In this document: positions 40,499 through 50,073 of the stretch, piece by piece
Layout: the number at the start of each line of letters is the position of its first letter
How positions within the stretch are numbered: the first letter of the stretch is position 1
Assembly (NCBI GenBank): GCA_964611275.1
Contig: CAZSZS010000040.1
Span: forward strand, 2,992 to 66,991
DNA: 64,000 nt
From: an uncultured Eubacteriales bacterium
Lineage (GTDB): Bacteria; Acidobacteriota; Aminicenantia; Aminicenantales; Aminicenantaceae
Reading direction: 5' to 3'
Position numbers and translations under genes: made by a program
The notes under the pieces: generated by a model
Seen by the model: the letters and a program-made list of their open reading frames with translations, nothing else
Databases searched by the model: none
What the model was told of the DNA's origin: nothing

Positions 40499-43400
40499 AT
40501 GGGAACATTGAATAAAAACATGAAAGCATGGCTTGAGGAGAAATTCATTCAGAGAGTCAACTTCAACCCGTATGAAAGACTTCTTTACAGCCATGATATT
40601 GCGGCCATGCCTAAACTGGTGAAGCCCCTTATCGGGAATACGGTCCCTGATGCCGTGGTCCAACCGGAAAATGAACAGGAATTATCCGAACTTATCAGAT
40701 GGGCTGCAGAGAAGAGAATACCGCTGGTCCCAAGAGGAAAAGGGTCATCCGGATACGGAGGGATCATCCCGACAAAAAAAGGGATCGTCATCGATTTTTA
40801 CCGGATGAAGAGGGTCGTGTCAGTGGATGAAAAACAAATGCTGGCAGTAGTGGAACCCGGAATAACCTGGGAACAGCTGGATAGAGAGCTGGCTAAAAAA
40901 GGCCTCACCGTACGTCTTTACCCTACCAGCTACCCTTCTTCGTCCGCCGGGGGATGGCTCGCCCAGGGCGGAGCGGGCATAGGCTCTTTTGAGTACGGAT
41001 GGTTTTCAGACAATGTCAAAAGCGCGAGGATCGTCCTTCCTGATGGGAAGATAAGAGATCTCTCTGGAAAGGAGATGGAGCTTGTGGCTGATGCAGAGGG
41101 GACCACAGGAATTATAAGCCGGCTGACAGTTCATGTGCAGAAACTGGAAAAAAACCATGTAACTGCTTTTGCCTGTCCCGATGCTCATTCCCTTTCCCGG
41201 ATTTTTCAGGAAATCATAGACCGGAAACTTCCGGTCTGGTCTGTGGTTTTTATAAATCCACGCATGGCCGAAATGAAAAATCGATCTCCTCTGCTCGAAA
41301 AGCATGGTCACCCTGTAGAAGAGAGGGTGATACTTCCGGCCGCTTATATCACGACCCTTGCCTTCAGGGAAAAGGATCGTGATGAGATCATGGGAAAACT
41401 GGCCGGAATCATCAAGAAGTGCGAAGGAGAGATGCTCAGCCAGAGGATCGCCGACCATGAATGGAAAAATCGATTCAAATTGATGATCGTCAAGAGGCTT
41501 GGTCCCTCTCTTGTTCCGGCGGAGGTAGTGGTTCCTTTGGATAAATTAGGTGATGTCATGGAGGAGATCGAGAATAAAGTGAACCAGCCGGTGGTCAAGG
41601 AAGGCGTCATTATAAAAAAAGGAAGAGACGGAAAAGCCGAGGCTGTCATCCTGGGTTTTATCCCCAGTGACCAGCGGAAATTTTCCTATAATTTTGTTTT
41701 CGGGCTAGTGCTGACTATCATGAAGATCGCTAAAAAATACGGGGGGCGGCCTTATTCGACCGGATTGTATTTTTCCGGAGAGAAAGGCAAGGTTCTTGGG
41801 AAGAAGAGAAGCACAGAGATCGAAAAATATAAGAAAACAGTCGATCCGCATAAAATTTTAAATCCGGATAAGGTCGTGAAAAAGAATGCGGTAAGCAGAG
41901 CGTTGAGCTTTGCCAAACTTTTTGAGCCTTTTGTGAGACCATTCGGCAATACGGTGGTCACCCGAGTAGGAGAGTACTTTGAAAAACCGGTGAGAGGGAT
42001 TCCGGCCGATGTGGCCAGATATGCCTATGGCTGTTCCCAGTGCGGTTACTGTCTGGATGAGTGCGACCAGTTTTTTGGCAGGGGATGGGAGAGCCAGTCG
42101 CCACGCGGGAAATGGTACTGGCTTCGCGAATACATGGAAGGAAAGGTCGAATGGAACCAATTTATGGTCGATACCATGATCGCCTGCACGACTTGTGAGT
42201 TCTGTGACATTCGCTGTTCCGCATCGCTTCCCATAGAGTCATCCTGGATGAAATTAAGGGGAAAATTGATCCATGAAGACAAAAAGATGACCTTTCCTCC
42301 TTTTGAGATGATGGCTGCTGCTTCCAGATCTCAAGGAAACATATGGGCAGGGTATCGAAAAGACCGCACAGCCTGGTTTCCAAAAGAATTGAAAGAAAAA
42401 CACGGGCCTGGGAAAAAGAGCAAAAATATCTATTTTGCCGGATGCACGGCTTCTTATGTCGAACACGATATCGGAGCGGCTTCTGTGACCCTGCTGGATG
42501 CGGCTGGGGTAGATTTTTCCTATCTCGGGACTAAGGAAAACTGCTGCGGCACTCCCATGCTGGTGGCGGGGAAATGGGATGTGTTCAAAGAGATCATGCG
42601 CAGAAACATAGAAGCTGTCAAGGAAGCCGGAGCGGATACAGTGATCTCGTCCTGTCCGGCTTGTGACATGATGTGGCGTCACTATTACCCGCAATGGGCG
42701 GATAAACTCAATATGGATTACAACATAAAAGCCAAACACTACAGCGAAGTGATTTCAGAAAAGCTGAAAAAAGGAGAGTTTAAATTCACCCATGCGCTGA
42801 AAGGCAAGGTGACCTGGCATGACTCCTGTCATATCGGACGTGTCTCAGGAGTCTACGAAGAACCCAGGGATATTATTAAGGCCGTTCCGGGAGTTGAGTT
42901 TGAGGAGATGGCTCACAACAGGGAAGAAGGACACTGCTGCGGAAGCGTATTGACTTTACTAAAAGACCCTCCTATAGCGGCTGACATAGGAAAGTCAAGG
43001 ATGGAGGAAGCAAAGGAGATCAATGCAGAGACTGTTCTTGCTCTTTGCCCCTGCTGTGAGTTCCAACTAAGGGTCACAGAGGAAAAAAAGAAACTGGGGC
43101 TGGAAGTCAAAGACTTAGCCACCTTTGCCTGTAAAGCTTTGGGAAAGGAGTTTAAAGATCCGAGCCCCGAAGTGGCCAAGCAGTGGGCTGTTTTTGAAGC
43201 CATGATCGAGCTTATGACACCTGAGGGATTTGCCAGCCTTATGGCTTCCATGTGGCCCGAGCTCTTGGATGCCATGCCCCTGGGAATGGGGAAGATGATG
43301 CGGGCTATAGGGAAGATGGGAGTATTCGGTGGTTTTTTATTGGGTCTGATGAAACCGGTATTTCCTGTGCTGTTCCCAAAACTTCTGCCTGGCATGATGC

Positions 43401-43582
43401 CAAAAGTCATGCCCAAGATGCTGGAGAAGATAGAAGAAAGGATTCCCATGCCTGATTATATGGCAGAGCAAATGCCGGATATGATGCCCGGAGTCATGGA
43501 TAATCTGATGCCGCATATGCTGCCCGATGTGGTTCCTCTGGTTGTGCCTGAAATGATATCTTATCTTAGAAGCCGGGCTTAG
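40499..43582 (+). CDS. FAD-binding oxidase (GlcD-like) fused to a 2x[4Fe-4S] and double-CCG (GlcF/HdrD-like) module, with a Met/Pro-rich C-terminal tail
   Basis: FAD_binding_4 motif PLVPRGKGSSGYGG. CSQCGYCLDEC and CTTCEFCDIRC cluster motifs. CCG motifs (ENCCGTP, GHCCGS). The last ~126 aa are unusually Met-rich. Confidence 0.85.
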   Translation: MGTLNKNMKAWLEEKFIQRVNFNPYERLLYSHDIAAMPKLVKPLIGNTVPDAVVQPENEQELSELIRWAAEKRIPLVPRGKGSSGYGGIIPTKKGIVIDFYRMKRVVSVDEKQMLAVVEPGITWEQLDRELAKKGLTVRLYPTSYPSSSAGGWLAQGGAGIGSFEYGWFSDNVKSARIVLPDGKIRDLSGKEMELVADAEGTTGIISRLTVHVQKLEKNHVTAFACPDAHSLSRIFQEIIDRKLPVWSVVFINPRMAEMKNRSPLLEKHGHPVEERVILPAAYITTLAFREKDRDEIMGKLAGIIKKCEGEMLSQRIADHEWKNRFKLMIVKRLGPSLVPAEVVVPLDKLGDVMEEIENKVNQPVVKEGVIIKKGRDGKAEAVILGFIPSDQRKFSYNFVFGLVLTIMKIAKKYGGRPYSTGLYFSGEKGKVLGKKRSTEIEKYKKTVDPHKILNPDKVVKKNAVSRALSFAKLFEPFVRPFGNTVVTRVGEYFEKPVRGIPADVARYAYGCSQCGYCLDECDQFFGRGWESQSPRGKWYWLREYMEGKVEWNQFMVDTMIACTTCEFCDIRCSASLPIESSWMKLRGKLIHEDKKMTFPPFEMMAAASRSQGNIWAGYRKDRTAWFPKELKEKHGPGKKSKNIYFAGCTASYVEHDIGAASVTLLDAAGVDFSYLGTKENCCGTPMLVAGKWDVFKEIMRRNIEAVKEAGADTVISSCPACDMMWRHYYPQWADKLNMDYNIKAKHYSEVISEKLKKGEFKFTHALKGKVTWHDSCHIGRVSGVYEEPRDIIKAVPGVEFEEMAHNREEGHCCGSVLTLLKDPPIAADIGKSRMEEAKEINAETVLALCPCCEFQLRVTEEKKKLGLEVKDLATFACKALGKEFKDPSPEVAKQWAVFEAMIELMTPEGFASLMASMWPELLDAMPLGMGKMMRAIGKMGVFGGFLLGLMKPVFPVLFPKLLPGMMPKVMPKMLEKIEERIPMPDYMAEQMPDMMPGVMDNLMPHMLPDVVPLVVPEMISYLRSRA

Positions 43583-44352
43583 ATCACAACCGCATCCACA
43601 AACAGTTCATAGGTATTGTCTTCGTCAAGGTCGTGGATTTTTACCTTTTCAACTTCATTAAGGCCCATTATCCCGACAAGTTCGGATTCAGAGAGAATTT
43701 TAACATTTGCTTGTTTGAGCTCAGCCTTGAGATCGTCTGCAACATTTTTGGATTTTTTCTGAGTTAAAAAGACAACTCTAGGAGAATACTTGGCTAAGGC
43801 TCGGGCCAGCTCTCCGGATTCTTTTCCTTTATCCTGGATAAGAATCCTTTTTTCCTTTAATAAAGAAGGGTCTTTGATTTTATGATAAACTCCCTTTCCT
43901 GAGAAGTCTTTTTCTCCCGGGATTTTCTTCATGGAAGGGCTTTTGACCTCTTTTTCATTTTCCTTTTTTTCTTTTTGTTTTTCTTTGTAATTTTTTATGG
44001 CTGTTTTAAGGGCATCGGCAGCCAGATTTGAACAGTGCATTTTTACCGGAGGAAGCCCGTCCAGTTCATCCGCCACATCCTGTCGGGTTATTTTAAGGGC
44101 TTCATCCAGAGTCTTCCCTTTAGCTAATTCTGTCACCATAGAGGCGGTGGCCACAGCTGAACCGCAGCCGAATGTTTTGAATTTAATATCTTGGATCCGG
44201 TTGTTTTTGACTTTCAATGTGAATTCCATAAGGTCCCCGCACACAGGATTTCCGACCGTGCCTTTGGCTATATCTTTCCCTGTTAAAGTGCCCACGTTCC
44301 TGGGATTGCGGAAATGGTCCAAAACTTTTTTAGAATATGATGTTGATTTCAT
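43579..44352 (-). CDS. iscU: IscU/NifU-N Fe-S scaffold fused to a degenerate thioredoxin-reductase-like NAD(P)H subdomain
   Basis: IscU ligands GNPVCGD, FGCGSAVATAS, HCSNLA. Lys/Glu linker. The C-terminal ~105 aa align by eye to the TrxB NADPH domain (KRILIQDKGKESGELARALAKYSPRVVFLTQKK...VKIHDL...YELFVDAVVI). Confidence 0.8.
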   Translation of the reverse strand: MKSTSYSKKVLDHFRNPRNVGTLTGKDIAKGTVGNPVCGDLMEFTLKVKNNRIQDIKFKTFGCGSAVATASMVTELAKGKTLDEALKITRQDVADELDGLPPVKMHCSNLAADALKTAIKNYKEKQKEKKENEKEVKSPSMKKIPGEKDFSGKGVYHKIKDPSLLKEKRILIQDKGKESGELARALAKYSPRVVFLTQKKSKNVADDLKAELKQANVKILSESELVGIMGLNEVEKVKIHDLDEDNTYELFVDAVVI

Positions 44353-44379: not shown

Positions 44380-45531
44380 TTAATAGATCGGGGAAAGCTT
44401 TCTTAATCTGTCAACGACTTCAGGCAGAGCCTTTATGACAGAATCAATATCGCTTTCCTTTGTAAACCTGCCTGTGGTGAGTTCCAATGAGCCGTGTGCT
44501 TCTTCGTGAAGCAAACCCATGGCGATCAGTGTATGAGAGGGCTCCAGTGTTTTTGAGGAGCAGGCTGAACCTGTTGAAACAGCTATCCCCTTGTCATTCA
44601 GTGACAGAAGCAGTGATTCGCCTTCGATCCCGTCGAAACGAAAATGAGCGTTGTTGGGCAGCCTGTTTTCAGGGTGCCCGTTAAGATAGGACCTTGGAAT
44701 ACTTTCTAAGATCTCTTTGATCAGCCTGTCTCTGAAAGACTGTAATTTATGGGCTTCCTCTTTTCTTTCCTGCATCACGATCTCTGACGCACGGGCCATT
44801 CCTGCGATGGCCGGCAGGTTTTCCGTGCCGGAGCGGATTCCGTTTTCCTGTCCTCCGCCAATGATCTGCGGCATCAACTTGATTCCTTTTCTTACATAGA
44901 GAACTCCCAATCCTTTGGGTCCGTAAATATCATTCGATGATAGGGTCATCAGGTCTATGAAATCTTTTTGGACATCTAGGGCAAGGAGCCCTTCGGCTGC
45001 CACAGCATCGGTATGAAAAGCGATGTCTCTTTCTCTGCACAAGCGGCCTATTTCCTTTATGGGCTGGATCGTACCGACTTCATTGCTGGCATAGCCTATG
45101 GAAACAAGAAGGGAGTCATCTGTGAGCCGCTCAATTATTTTATCCGGATGCACTCTTCCGTAGTGGTCTACAGGGACCTTTGACACTTTAAATCCGGATT
45201 TCATGAGAAACTTAGCTGTGTTGTGTATGGATATATGCTCTGTTTCTGAGAGGATGATGTGCTTTCCCTTACCTTTGTTTTTGAGCGCATAGCCAATAAG
45301 CGCCAGGTTATTGGACTCGGTGGCACCTGATGTGAATATGATTTCGTCAGGTTCGGCTTGAATGAAGCCTGCGATTGTGGAACGGCTTTTATCAAGAGCT
45401 TCTGTGGCTTGGTCTCCTATGGAATGCAGCGACGATGGATTTCCGAATGTTTCATTGAAATAGGGATCCATGGCTTTAACGACCCTTGGGTCTACAGGTT
45501 TTGAGGATTGGTAGTCAAGGTAGACATTCAT
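44380..45531 (-). CDS. iscS: NifS/IscS-family (class V aminotransferase fold) protein lacking the PLP-binding lysine
   Basis: FTSGATESNN, SETEH, HTDAV, catalytic-loop SACSS, HGSLELT. The canonical SGHKIYGPKG is SSNDIYGPKG here (Asp codon GAT at 44929-44931). Confidence 0.85.
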   Translation of the reverse strand: MNVYLDYQSSKPVDPRVVKAMDPYFNETFGNPSSLHSIGDQATEALDKSRSTIAGFIQAEPDEIIFTSGATESNNLALIGYALKNKGKGKHIILSETEHISIHNTAKFLMKSGFKVSKVPVDHYGRVHPDKIIERLTDDSLLVSIGYASNEVGTIQPIKEIGRLCRERDIAFHTDAVAAEGLLALDVQKDFIDLMTLSSNDIYGPKGLGVLYVRKGIKLMPQIIGGGQENGIRSGTENLPAIAGMARASEIVMQERKEEAHKLQSFRDRLIKEILESIPRSYLNGHPENRLPNNAHFRFDGIEGESLLLSLNDKGIAVSTGSACSSKTLEPSHTLIAMGLLHEEAHGSLELTTGRFTKESDIDSVIKALPEVVDRLRKLSPIY

Positions 45532-45546: not shown

Positions 45547-45906
45547 TTAAAACCACATGGTTGTGTCAGATTCAAGAGCCAGGTCATTCAATGTGCCGGC
45601 TCCCACGATCTTCAAACCCGGGATAAGGTTGGCCTTTTCCATGCCCAGCATTTGTTTGGAGGCTTCGCAAACGTATATTTCTATGCCCATATCAAGCGTA
45701 TTTTTAATGACTTCTGATAAAGCAGGAAAGGAACCGGCTTTAATTTTCTCAGCAGCTCCAGGCTTTAAAACTCTCAGTCCCTGGCCCAGATAATAAATCT
45801 TAGCATCAATATCCATGGCCTTTGCGGTCTGGGCTAGGACAAGTGGGGAGTACTGCCTTTCCGGGTGATCACTTGTTTGAACATAAAGGATTGAATCTTT
45901 TTTCAT
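45547..45906 (-). CDS. DsrE/DsrF-like sulfur-relay family protein
   Basis: 119 aa. DsrE fold pattern with conserved Cys in IYVCEASKQM. Adjacent to tusA. Confidence 0.7.
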   Translation of the reverse strand: MKKDSILYVQTSDHPERQYSPLVLAQTAKAMDIDAKIYYLGQGLRVLKPGAAEKIKAGSFPALSEVIKNTLDMGIEIYVCEASKQMLGMEKANLIPGLKIVGAGTLNDLALESDTTMWF

Positions 45907-45915
45907 TCTTGCCTC

Positions 45916-46158
45916 CTATTTTATTTTTTTTATCAAGAACCGCATGGATTCATCTCTTTTTTCGAATGAGATGATCTCATGGCCTGTTCTTTTTGCAAAC
46001 CTCTTTATATCTTCCTCAGCAGCCGGGTCATCTGCCAGAACTTCCAGGATTTCTCCTTTTTCGATGCTGTCTATGCTTTCTCTTGTCTGGAACAAAGGTT
46101 CAGGACAAAAAAGTCCGATACAATCAAGGGTTTTTTGGGGTTTATTTTTTGATGACAT
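45916..46158 (-). CDS. tusA: TusA/SirA-family sulfur carrier
   Basis: 80 aa. LDCIGLFCPEPL contains the CPxP active-site motif. Confidence 0.85.
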   Translation of the reverse strand: MSSKNKPQKTLDCIGLFCPEPLFQTRESIDSIEKGEILEVLADDPAAEEDIKRFAKRTGHEIISFEKRDESMRFLIKKIK

Positions 46159-49380: not shown

Positions 49381-50073
49381 CTATACGGGCTCAAATTCGT
49401 CCTTAGATGCCCCGCACACCGGGCAGACCCAATCGTCAGGGATATCTTTAAAAGCGGTTCCCGGCTCGATTCCGCTGTCAGGATCGCCCTTTTCCGGTTC
49501 ATAAATATATCCGCACACTGTGCATCTGTAAGATTTCATTTTTGTTTTCTCCTTTTTTTCCGTGTTTTTTTCTTTAACATAAGTGGGCGCATTTTTGTCT
49601 GTCTTGCCTTTTTTGACCTCATGATAATAGGAGTAGGTAAGGGGTTCCCCCTGTTTCAGTTTTTCTGCTTCAATCAGCTTTCCCACAAATGCAGTGTGAG
49701 TGCCCACGTCTAAAGCCTCTGTCACTTCACATAAAAGATACCCAAGAGTGTTCTCGGTCAGATAGGGGATGCCTTTTTTCCCTGTTTTGTAGCCGACTTC
49801 CTTGAATTTATCGAATTCACGGCCCGACCTGAAACCAAAAGTCCCGATAAACTTAAGAGGTGTGTCCTTTTCTAAAATTGAGACCGAGAAAACTTTGCTT
49901 TCAGTGATATAGTTATGTGTGAGATTTTTTTTATTGAGGCATACCAGAATTTTAGGGGGCTCTGCGGTGATCTGAGTCACAACATTTGCTATCTGGCCGT
50001 TGTATTTTTCTCCCTTTTTGGAGCTTATCACATAAACTCCATAGCTGATATCGAACAAAGTGGTTATATCCAT
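49381..50073 (-). CDS. Flavin reductase domain fused to C-terminal rubredoxin (high-molecular-weight rubredoxin type)
   Basis: Flavin_Reduct-like N-terminus. C-terminal [16 protein letters not shown]...[14 protein letters not shown] rubredoxin. Confidence 0.85.

Follow-up and report, generated by a model that had tools for sequence, protein, structure and literature searches.

The locus and its scaffold protein

The window analysed here is a 64,000-nucleotide stretch of contig CAZSZS010000040.1 (GenBank assembly GCA_964611275.1) from an uncultured bacterium of the family Aminicenantaceae. It carries four co-directional genes encoding TusA, a DsrE-family protein, a homologue of the cysteine desulfurase IscS and, last, an IscU scaffold for iron-sulfur (Fe-S) clusters. 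The open reading frame (ORF) of this last gene joins a canonical IscU domain through a short linker to a tail homologous to the nicotinamide dinucleotide (NAD(P)H)-binding subdomain of low-molecular-weight thioredoxin reductase (TrxR), present without the flavin adenine dinucleotide (FAD) domain. The protein, called IscU~tail here, and the other cassette genes are listed in Table 1.

Table 1. Positions in the window of the cassette genes and of the parts of the IscU~tail protein.
Feature	Position	Strand	Remarks
TusA sulfur carrier, first cassette gene	45916..46158	-	PF01206 E 3.4e-25; conserved upstream in related loci
DsrE-family protein	45547..45906	-	PF02635 E 1.3e-16
IscS2-type cysteine-desulfurase homologue	44380..45531	-	SSND replaces SGHK, the pyridoxal 5'-phosphate (PLP) lysine motif; Cys loop TGSACSS kept
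IscU~tail ORF, IscU scaffold with C-terminal orphan NAD(P)H subdomain	43579..44352	-	257 residues + stop; last gene of the cassette
IscU / NifU_N domain, residues 1-128	43969..44352	-	PF01592, TIGR03419; ligands C38, D40, C63, H106, C107
Lys/Glu-rich linker, residues 129-143	43924..43968	-	disordered in AlphaFold2 (AF2) model; weak constraint
Tail, residues 144-257 (114 residues), complete NAD(P)H-binding subdomain of the low-molecular-weight TrxR fold, without FAD domain	43582..43923	-	profile and structure matches
Degenerate dinucleotide-binding loop D174-K-G-K-E-S179, where GxGxxA is expected	43816..43833	-	column statistics
Acidic beta-hairpin and last strand, H240-D-L-D-E-D-N-T-Y-E-L-F-V-D253	43594..43635	-	most conserved part of the tail

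The N-terminal part is a complete IscU domain with three Cys ligands and a His, as the first-pass annotation of this DNA had claimed. PF01592 matches residues 6-128 over positions 2-126 of its 127 with 171.3 bits (cut-off 22) and an E-value of 1.2e-50, TIGR03419 scores 185.8 bits, and the cluster ligands C38, D40, C63, H106 and C107 are invariant in an alignment of orthologs (18 of 18), so that score and ligands alike place the domain in the PF01592 family. The Lys/Glu linker described earlier follows directly, and its residues 130-141 have predicted local distance difference test (pLDDT) values below 50 in the full-length AF2 model. A strain variant in one run (X4) carries a 1-nucleotide deletion and a 1-nucleotide insertion 12 nucleotides apart (window 43957 and 43969); the two compensate (-1/+1) and recode about four codons where the C-terminal helix of IscU meets the linker (about residues 128-132), which is consistent with weak constraint on the linker.

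Sequence and predicted structure both confirm the homology of the tail to the TrxR NAD(P)H subdomain, well above chance. A single-sequence phmmer search of the PDB aligns it with residues 130-244 of Sulfolobus TrxB-3 (E-value 2.4e-5), and a profile of 22 tail sequences matches residues 131-246 of the TrxR-like protein of T. thermophilus, 2zbw (2.8e-10), and 3f8d (3.6e-9), together with dozens of TrxRs, TrxR-like ferredoxin-NADP reductases (FNRs) and AhpF. NCBIfam TIGR01292 aligns residues 142-256 with positions 115-231 of its 300 (1.7e-11). The tail-only AF2 model has a pLDDT of 94.8, and Foldseek superposes it on the NAD(P)H subdomain of many TrxR, TrxR-like FNR and AhpF chains with E-values down to 4e-12, query-normalised template modelling (TM) scores of 0.87-0.91 and root mean square deviations of about 2 Å. 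A Pfam scan of the tail gave sub-threshold matches only (FMO-like, E-value 0.008; HI0933_like, 0.064). Fold and order of sequence are those of TrxB (TIGR01292) and of the TrxR-like FNRs 2zbw and 3lzw, spanning about 118 to about 244 in TrxB. The by-eye alignment of residues 152-257 (43582-43899) with TrxB in the first-pass annotation is thus borne out by profile and structure, except that the whole subdomain begins earlier, at residue 144.

The likeness is confined to this one subdomain. The whole protein reaches 43.5 bits with TIGR01292, for which the cut-off is 343. It has the fold of the NAD(P)H subdomain, but the N-terminal GxGxxG and the C-terminal segment of the FAD-binding domain are absent, and no sequence before residue 144 or after 257 is able to form such a domain. 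The position of the redox-active CxxC reads YHKI and the tail has no conserved Cys, while DKGKES and LTQKK stand where GxGxxA and the HRR 2'-phosphate site are expected; the earlier readings of YHKI and of QDKGKES in place of GGGxxA were accurate. Measured against the TrxR-like ferredoxin/flavodoxin-NAD(P)+ reductases, the tail likewise has neither FAD domain nor NAD(P)H motifs and resembles them only in having no CxxC. Because the FAD domain, CxxC, GxGxxA and HRR are all missing, IscU~tail is not a thioredoxin reductase or an FNR; it has one subdomain in common with these enzymes and no family membership. Under the rules of the Rossmann fold, canonical NAD(P)H binding is not expected with a carboxylate in the pyrophosphate site. 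With D174 at that site, the tail is not expected to bind NAD(P)H canonically or, having no FAD domain, to carry out flavin chemistry; disulfide chemistry is likewise not expected where its motif is absent, in agreement with the initial assessment.

Cassette, conservation and distribution

The best PDB match of the IscS homologue is A. fulgidus IscS2 (4eb5; E-value 2.4e-137), which has the identical SSNDIYGPKG. Asp occupies the position of the PLP lysine in both, 4r5f being an SSNK variant, and a regular-expression search for SSND or SAND gave 26 matches across related loci. Judging from its sequence, a window IscS that lacks the PLP lysine cannot form a persulfide from cysteine by the usual PLP mechanism, and sulfur probably enters through TusA and DsrE and not through cysteine desulfuration. 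The IscS gene is adjacent to that of IscU~tail, and the operon has no HscAB, Fdx, IscA or CyaY; genes for frataxin, IscX, ferredoxin or chaperones were not found in the cassette. With its IscS2-type desulfurase homologue, it is a minimal ISC-type system (MIS) in the sense of PMC12192291 and PMC13066941, where machines of IscS and IscU only are proposed as ancestral for Fe-S assembly.

Like the A. fulgidus IscS2-IscU MIS (4eb5, 4eb7), the window combines a canonical IscU that has all its ligands with an Asp-type IscS2 and encodes no chaperones, carrier or ferredoxin in the cassette. It differs in adding TusA and DsrE and in the extra 114-residue domain of its scaffold. To our knowledge, this domain is absent from characterised IscU proteins. 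NifU proper, which consists of an IscU domain, a ferredoxin-like domain and an Nfu domain, is a precedent for an IscU scaffold with redox-related extra domains in one chain, although its [2Fe-2S] ferredoxin-like and Nfu domains are unrelated to the dead Rossmann subdomain of the window protein.

Clustering of the ORFs in 82 related loci recovered IscS in 75, DsrE in 56 and TusA in 49, the last figure being a lower bound with ORFs under 70 residues left out. The same cassette surrounds the bacterial orthologs and the archaeal full-length fusions described below, and IscU~tail is almost always its last gene. In 18 Asgard loci a protein of about 794 residues is encoded downstream of the cassette (for example L072 6611-9016); its N-terminus, IIIIGGVAGGASAA, looks like that of a pyridine-nucleotide-disulfide oxidoreductase.

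The IscU + tail architecture of about 257-270 residues recurs in at least 149 species in a scan of one genome per prokaryotic species. In 80 of the 80 loci that were read, the ORF ends 0-9 residues past ...YELFVDAV(V/I), and every complete ORF has the IscU motif ahead of the tail; tail identity to the window's own ranges from 45 to 85%. The 122 classified family members end at the same YELFVDAV boundary. Querying with the tail alone gave 40 clusters, all IscU + tail, with tail identities of 46-97% and nearly all 256-269 residues long (three shorter ones are probably partial). Alignment with full-length relatives shows that the ORF ends at the point where the TrxR chain re-enters the FAD domain, so that an ending once described as abrupt is a natural domain boundary.

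The bacterial hosts are Aminicenantes, Actinomycetota (Thermoleophilia, Coriobacteriia, Gaiellales), WOR-3, Spirochaetota, Zixibacteria, Deltaproteobacteria and Stahlbacteria, and the archaeal ones are Thermoplasmata and many Asgard lineages (Promethearchaeota, Thor-, Odin-, Hermod-, Hel- and Hodarchaeota). Within the window's own lineage the tail is present in 7 of 9 genomes of the genus and 6 of 55 genera of the family, and it was not found in other families of the order. Among 201 genomes drawn across the phylum, the window's own is the only one to have it.

Such a patchy distribution, with a tail that has no demonstrated function, could be taken for a functionless evolutionary scar or an artefact of assembly or annotation, but this explanation is essentially excluded. 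The identical end point in 80 of 80 loci and the recurrence of the locus in independent assemblies speak against it: contigs of four independent public salt-marsh or sediment runs, diverged strains included, have the same 3' end down to the 4-nucleotide overlap of the TAA stop with the TAG stop of a convergent gene (TTAG/CTAA), which rules out a local artefact or mis-assembly. The conserved architecture and common end point of the orthologs lead to the same conclusion. Nor are the orthologs recent transfers of one nearly identical sequence, as the tail identities given above attest. Finally, pairs with unsaturated synonymous divergence (dS 0.31-0.46) give ratios of nonsynonymous to synonymous substitution (dN/dS) of 0.03-0.06 for the IscU domain, 0.15-0.22 for the tail and 0.25-0.55 for the linker. 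The tail is under purifying selection, and its near-invariant motifs extend across bacteria and archaea.

The convergent gene (40499-43582, plus strand) encodes a 1027-residue protein in which an FAD-linked oxidase (FAD_binding_4/FAD-oxidase_C) is fused to a 4Fe-4S dicluster domain and two CCG domains; its C-terminus is rich in Met and Pro (...MPKVMPKM...MPDYMAEQMPDMMPGVMDNLMPHMLPD...).

An exhaustive search of metagenome proteins with the tail profile gave 541 matches. Among them, P0068, P0069, P0072, P0074 and P0080 combine unrelated N-termini, in P0072 the C-terminus of IscS, with no more of the tail than its final ~70 residues (KxSDVKxL...YELFVDAV); these could reflect chimeric assembly, deletion or genuine shuffling of the beta-meander. 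Two short proteins, P0053 and P0061, consist almost wholly of the tail region and are either stand-alone or fragments.

Full-length fusions and the origin of the tail

Searching with the tail profile also uncovered metagenome protein P0082, whose 443 residues comprise IscU and a complete TrxR-like flavoprotein. P0082 in turn led to a family of 441-454 residues in Ca. Methanoperedens, ANME-2/Methanosarcinales and Jordarchaeia; about 100 of the 120 matches listed, out of 4044, are full-length fusions. These have an intact FAD GGGxxG and a GxGxxA loop in the NAD(P)H subdomain, read GVYYxV at the position of CxxC and occupy the (TusA)-DsrE-IscS-IscU position; one Asgard-type full-fusion locus has TusA and IscS nearby. 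In one Ca. Methanoperedens locus (L008 7349-9400), a ribonucleotide reductase gene with an ATP-cone directly follows the DsrE-IscS-IscU~flavoprotein cassette.

A comparison of the two architectures shows how much they share. Both have an IscU domain and a TrxR-like NAD(P)H subdomain, both are encoded by the last gene of the (TusA)-DsrE-IscS cassette, and both have a VEK...DLxEDE motif and no CxxC. They differ in that the archaeal fusions keep both halves of the FAD domain (GGGxxG and the C-terminal ~70 residues) and GxGxxA, all lost from the window protein, in which the central 114-residue subdomain alone represents a flavoprotein of ~310 residues. The Methanoperedens-type fusions also keep HR(K/H)D, which the window protein is without. 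Alignment puts the difference at about 106 residues before the subdomain and about 70 after it, and the median distance from IscU to the subdomain is 33 residues in the tails versus 139 in the full fusions. Since the full fusions are already without CxxC, that motif was never lost in the lineage of the window's tail, and the source is a CxxC-less TrxR-like enzyme. The supposed replacement of CxxC in a descendant of TrxB proper is hence to be abandoned.

Residue frequencies by alignment column, taken from 111 tails, 106 full fusions and 60 stand-alone enzymes, separate what the tail has lost from what it has kept. Asp stands at the first Gly of GxGxxA in 95% of the tails (Glu, His or Val in the others), where the full-length relatives have Gly in 100%, and the Ala is Ser in 95% of the tails versus Ala in 100% of the relatives. 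The HRR position is T197 in 97% of the tails. Conservation is nearly complete at G154, R169, G176, R192-V193, V234-E235, D241, E244 and, at 99-100%, Y248-E-L-F-V-D253; within the hairpin E244, Y248, L250, F251, V252 and D253 reach 100%, E249 99% and D241 96%. The DLxEDE motif is similarly strong in the IscU-fused full-length flavoproteins (D241 92%, E244 99%, D245 83%) and much weaker in stand-alone TrxR-like enzymes, with D241 at 48% and, in columns 101-102, T (43%) and G (22%) as the commonest residues. Tails and full fusions thus have the VEK...DLxEDE hairpin in common, whereas stand-alone enzymes show it weakly or not at all.

A tree built from 107 NAD(P)H-subdomain segments over 114 columns places all tails in one clade (SH-aLRT support 100, stem length 0.64) in which bacteria and Asgard archaea are interleaved and which also holds the metagenome fragment P0049. 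With a weak support of 70, this clade joins the IscU-fused flavoproteins and a few stand-alone TrxR-like proteins, and the other stand-alone members of the TrxR family make up the other half of the tree.

These data give good support to an origin of the tail as a remnant of an ancient IscU-flavoprotein fusion and suggest that the direction of change was from full to reduced. An ancestral IscU would have been fused to a complete, CxxC-less TrxR-like flavoprotein, a layout surviving in Methanoperedens, ANME-2/Methanosarcinales and Jordarchaeia. A single ancient reduction would then have removed both halves of the discontinuous FAD domain and left only the NAD(P)H subdomain inserted between them, after which horizontal transfer would have carried the reduced cassette through anaerobic bacteria and the Asgard and Thermoplasmata archaea. 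The tail might instead have been captured independently from a fragment of a TrxR-like gene, the two architectures being convergent. The weak node joining tails and fusions and the lack of a detectable FAD-domain remnant in the linker would fit such a capture, but it is improbable: both architectures lie in the same position of the TusA-DsrE-IscS2-IscU cassette, both have the clade-specific VEK...DLxEDE that is weak or absent in stand-alone TrxR-like enzymes, and exact excision of the subdomain is easier by two deletions inside an existing fusion. Of the two fates proposed at the outset for the tail, a domesticated module agrees with an architecture conserved in at least 149 species and with its dN/dS; the scar of a rearrangement holds in the sense of an ancient reduction of an IscU-flavoprotein fusion and fails as a local accident, the remnant being under purifying selection.

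Two candidates for the missing FAD domain were rejected. One was a GxGxxG remnant in the linker, such as the 'GAGCG' of actinobacterial orthologs. A hidden Markov model of the N-terminal FAD half matches the linkers with an E-value of about 5e-4 (shuffled controls above 0.5), but over profile positions 1-26 only, the shared end of the IscU helix, and its FAD part is unmatched. The other was a gene for the FAD domain alone, complementing the tail in trans. A TIGR01292 scan of the window's genome found two ordinary CxxC TrxR homologues and unrelated flavoproteins, and a partial match of 238 residues proved to be the contig-end fragment of a GltD/NfnB-like gene. The second stand-alone TrxR homologue of this genome (contig C185, L092 175-1125) keeps CxxC (CAVCD) and has degenerate NADPH motifs (VVGGDNRAAE, ICHKNK), a combination reminiscent of NADPH-independent, ferredoxin- or flavin-linked TrxR variants.

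Possible roles of the tail and its relatives

The loss of the dinucleotide motif alongside preservation of the beta-meander with its acidic hairpin argues that the tail is most likely a non-redox protein-protein module. The preferred reading, to which a probability of about 0.6 is assigned, is a minimal-ISC scaffold carrying an isolated, dead NAD(P)H subdomain that is the remnant of a fusion and most likely serves as a non-redox docking or structural module. With the acidic hairpin and the exposed aromatic strand, the tail on its flexible linker would dock at the assembly site of IscS2-IscU, shield that site or bring in a partner, much as acidic accessory proteins do in classical ISC. The acidic DLDEDxxYELFVD hairpin would have arisen in IscU-fused flavoproteins and been inherited from a reductase that once served the scaffold.

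Several results weigh against this reading. The full-length AF2 model has a predicted TM score of 0.47 and no confident packing between domains, and neither single-chain AF2 modelling nor neighbour clustering identified a binding partner or interface for the tail. Across the 82 loci no neighbour beyond TusA, DsrE and IscS is consistent, and an extra conserved neighbour as the tail's partner was rejected, the other clusters being antisense shadow ORFs or lineage-specific genes. Classified tails all keep G176 of the loop, making a non-canonical small-ligand site conceivable. The sister relation of tails and full fusions depends on a branch support of only 70 from 114 columns, and the proposed direction, from full to reduced, rests on parsimony and on the discontinuity of the FAD domain. 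No experimental literature was found on the full fusion or on the tail.

The closest rival gives the same hairpin a role in iron handling. As a frataxin- or IscX-like element, the tail would bind Fe2+ weakly through E235, D241, D243, E244, D245, E249, D253 and perhaps D174, and deliver it to IscU or tune sulfur transfer by IscS2. CyaY, IscX and Fdx are acidic accessory proteins whose carboxylate ridges serve iron binding as well as docking on IscS. This precedent, the near-invariance of the acidic hairpin and a cassette without frataxin, IscX, ferredoxin or chaperone genes make the proposal worth considering, but it remains unlikely. It derives from composition and the tail has no known metal-binding motif; the full-length fusions have the same hairpin, for which electron transfer or docking is at least as plausible; and the proposal overlaps with docking itself.

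Less likely again is that the tail binds NAD(P)H, ADP or a similar nucleotide non-canonically and gates cluster assembly by sensing redox or energy state. In its favour, the tail-only model predicts a Rossmann beta-alpha-beta core with high confidence, and G176 and the K168-R169 pair ahead of strand beta1 are conserved. Set against this are the Asp that places a carboxylate at the pyrophosphate site in 95% of tails, the change of Ala to Ser, the loss of the HRR 2'-phosphate site and the variation of G176 in fragmentary metagenome members of the family, which are not confirmed as IscU-fused.

A more ambitious extension of the docking reading, tentative and clearly less probable than docking as such, starts from the full-length relatives. 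These may be self-reducing scaffolds with a built-in NAD(P)H-dependent flavin reductase, and the window's subdomain would be its surviving docking surface, now either a frataxin/IscX-like acidic gate on IscS2-IscU or a recruiter of an electron donor in trans. On the model of ferredoxin in classical ISC, we hypothesize that the full fusions have a built-in NAD(P)H-dependent electron supply, which would feed electrons for the reduction of persulfide to sulfide and for the coupling of [2Fe-2S] to [4Fe-4S] clusters. If this were true, the tails would be a new class of accessory factor for ancestral-type Fe-S assembly in Asgard archaea and anaerobic bacteria.

These proteins bear on the open question of where a minimal ISC system without ferredoxin, frataxin or chaperones obtains its electrons and accessory functions. 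One conserved TusA-DsrE-IscS2-IscU cassette accommodates two unannotated scaffold architectures. In the first, IscU with a whole TrxR-like flavoprotein is a candidate for a built-in electron donor; in the second, IscU has no more of that enzyme than the dead NAD(P)H subdomain, and selection maintains this form in well over 100 species, Asgard archaea included. Both are easy to express, bringing the question of electrons and accessory factors within experimental reach. The tail is also a case of a pseudo-enzyme domain, an NAD(P)H subdomain that was cleanly excised, persists and is predicted to fold without its FAD domain. Annotation with Pfam and NCBIfam sees only 'NifU_N' or 'NifU' in IscU~tail, and databases name the reduced and full fusions only 'NifU', 'IscU' or 'thioredoxin reductase'. 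A full-text literature search found no description of IscU-TrxR-like fusions or of the tail; one ribonucleotide reductase paper mentions IscU-like domains in the C-termini of class II enzymes, which are unrelated to IscU~tail.

The window's genome has further NifU_N-type genes. A second IscU paralog of 189 residues (contig C63, L002 1498-2067) has a Cys-rich, zinc-ribbon-like tail (CPTC...CRRC...CKEC...CPHC) and lies directly upstream of a gene that reads as quinolinate synthase (NadA)-like, and contig C156 holds a third NifU_N gene. Within the window itself, 49381-50073 on the minus strand encodes a 230-residue protein with a flavin reductase-like domain and a C-terminal rubredoxin.

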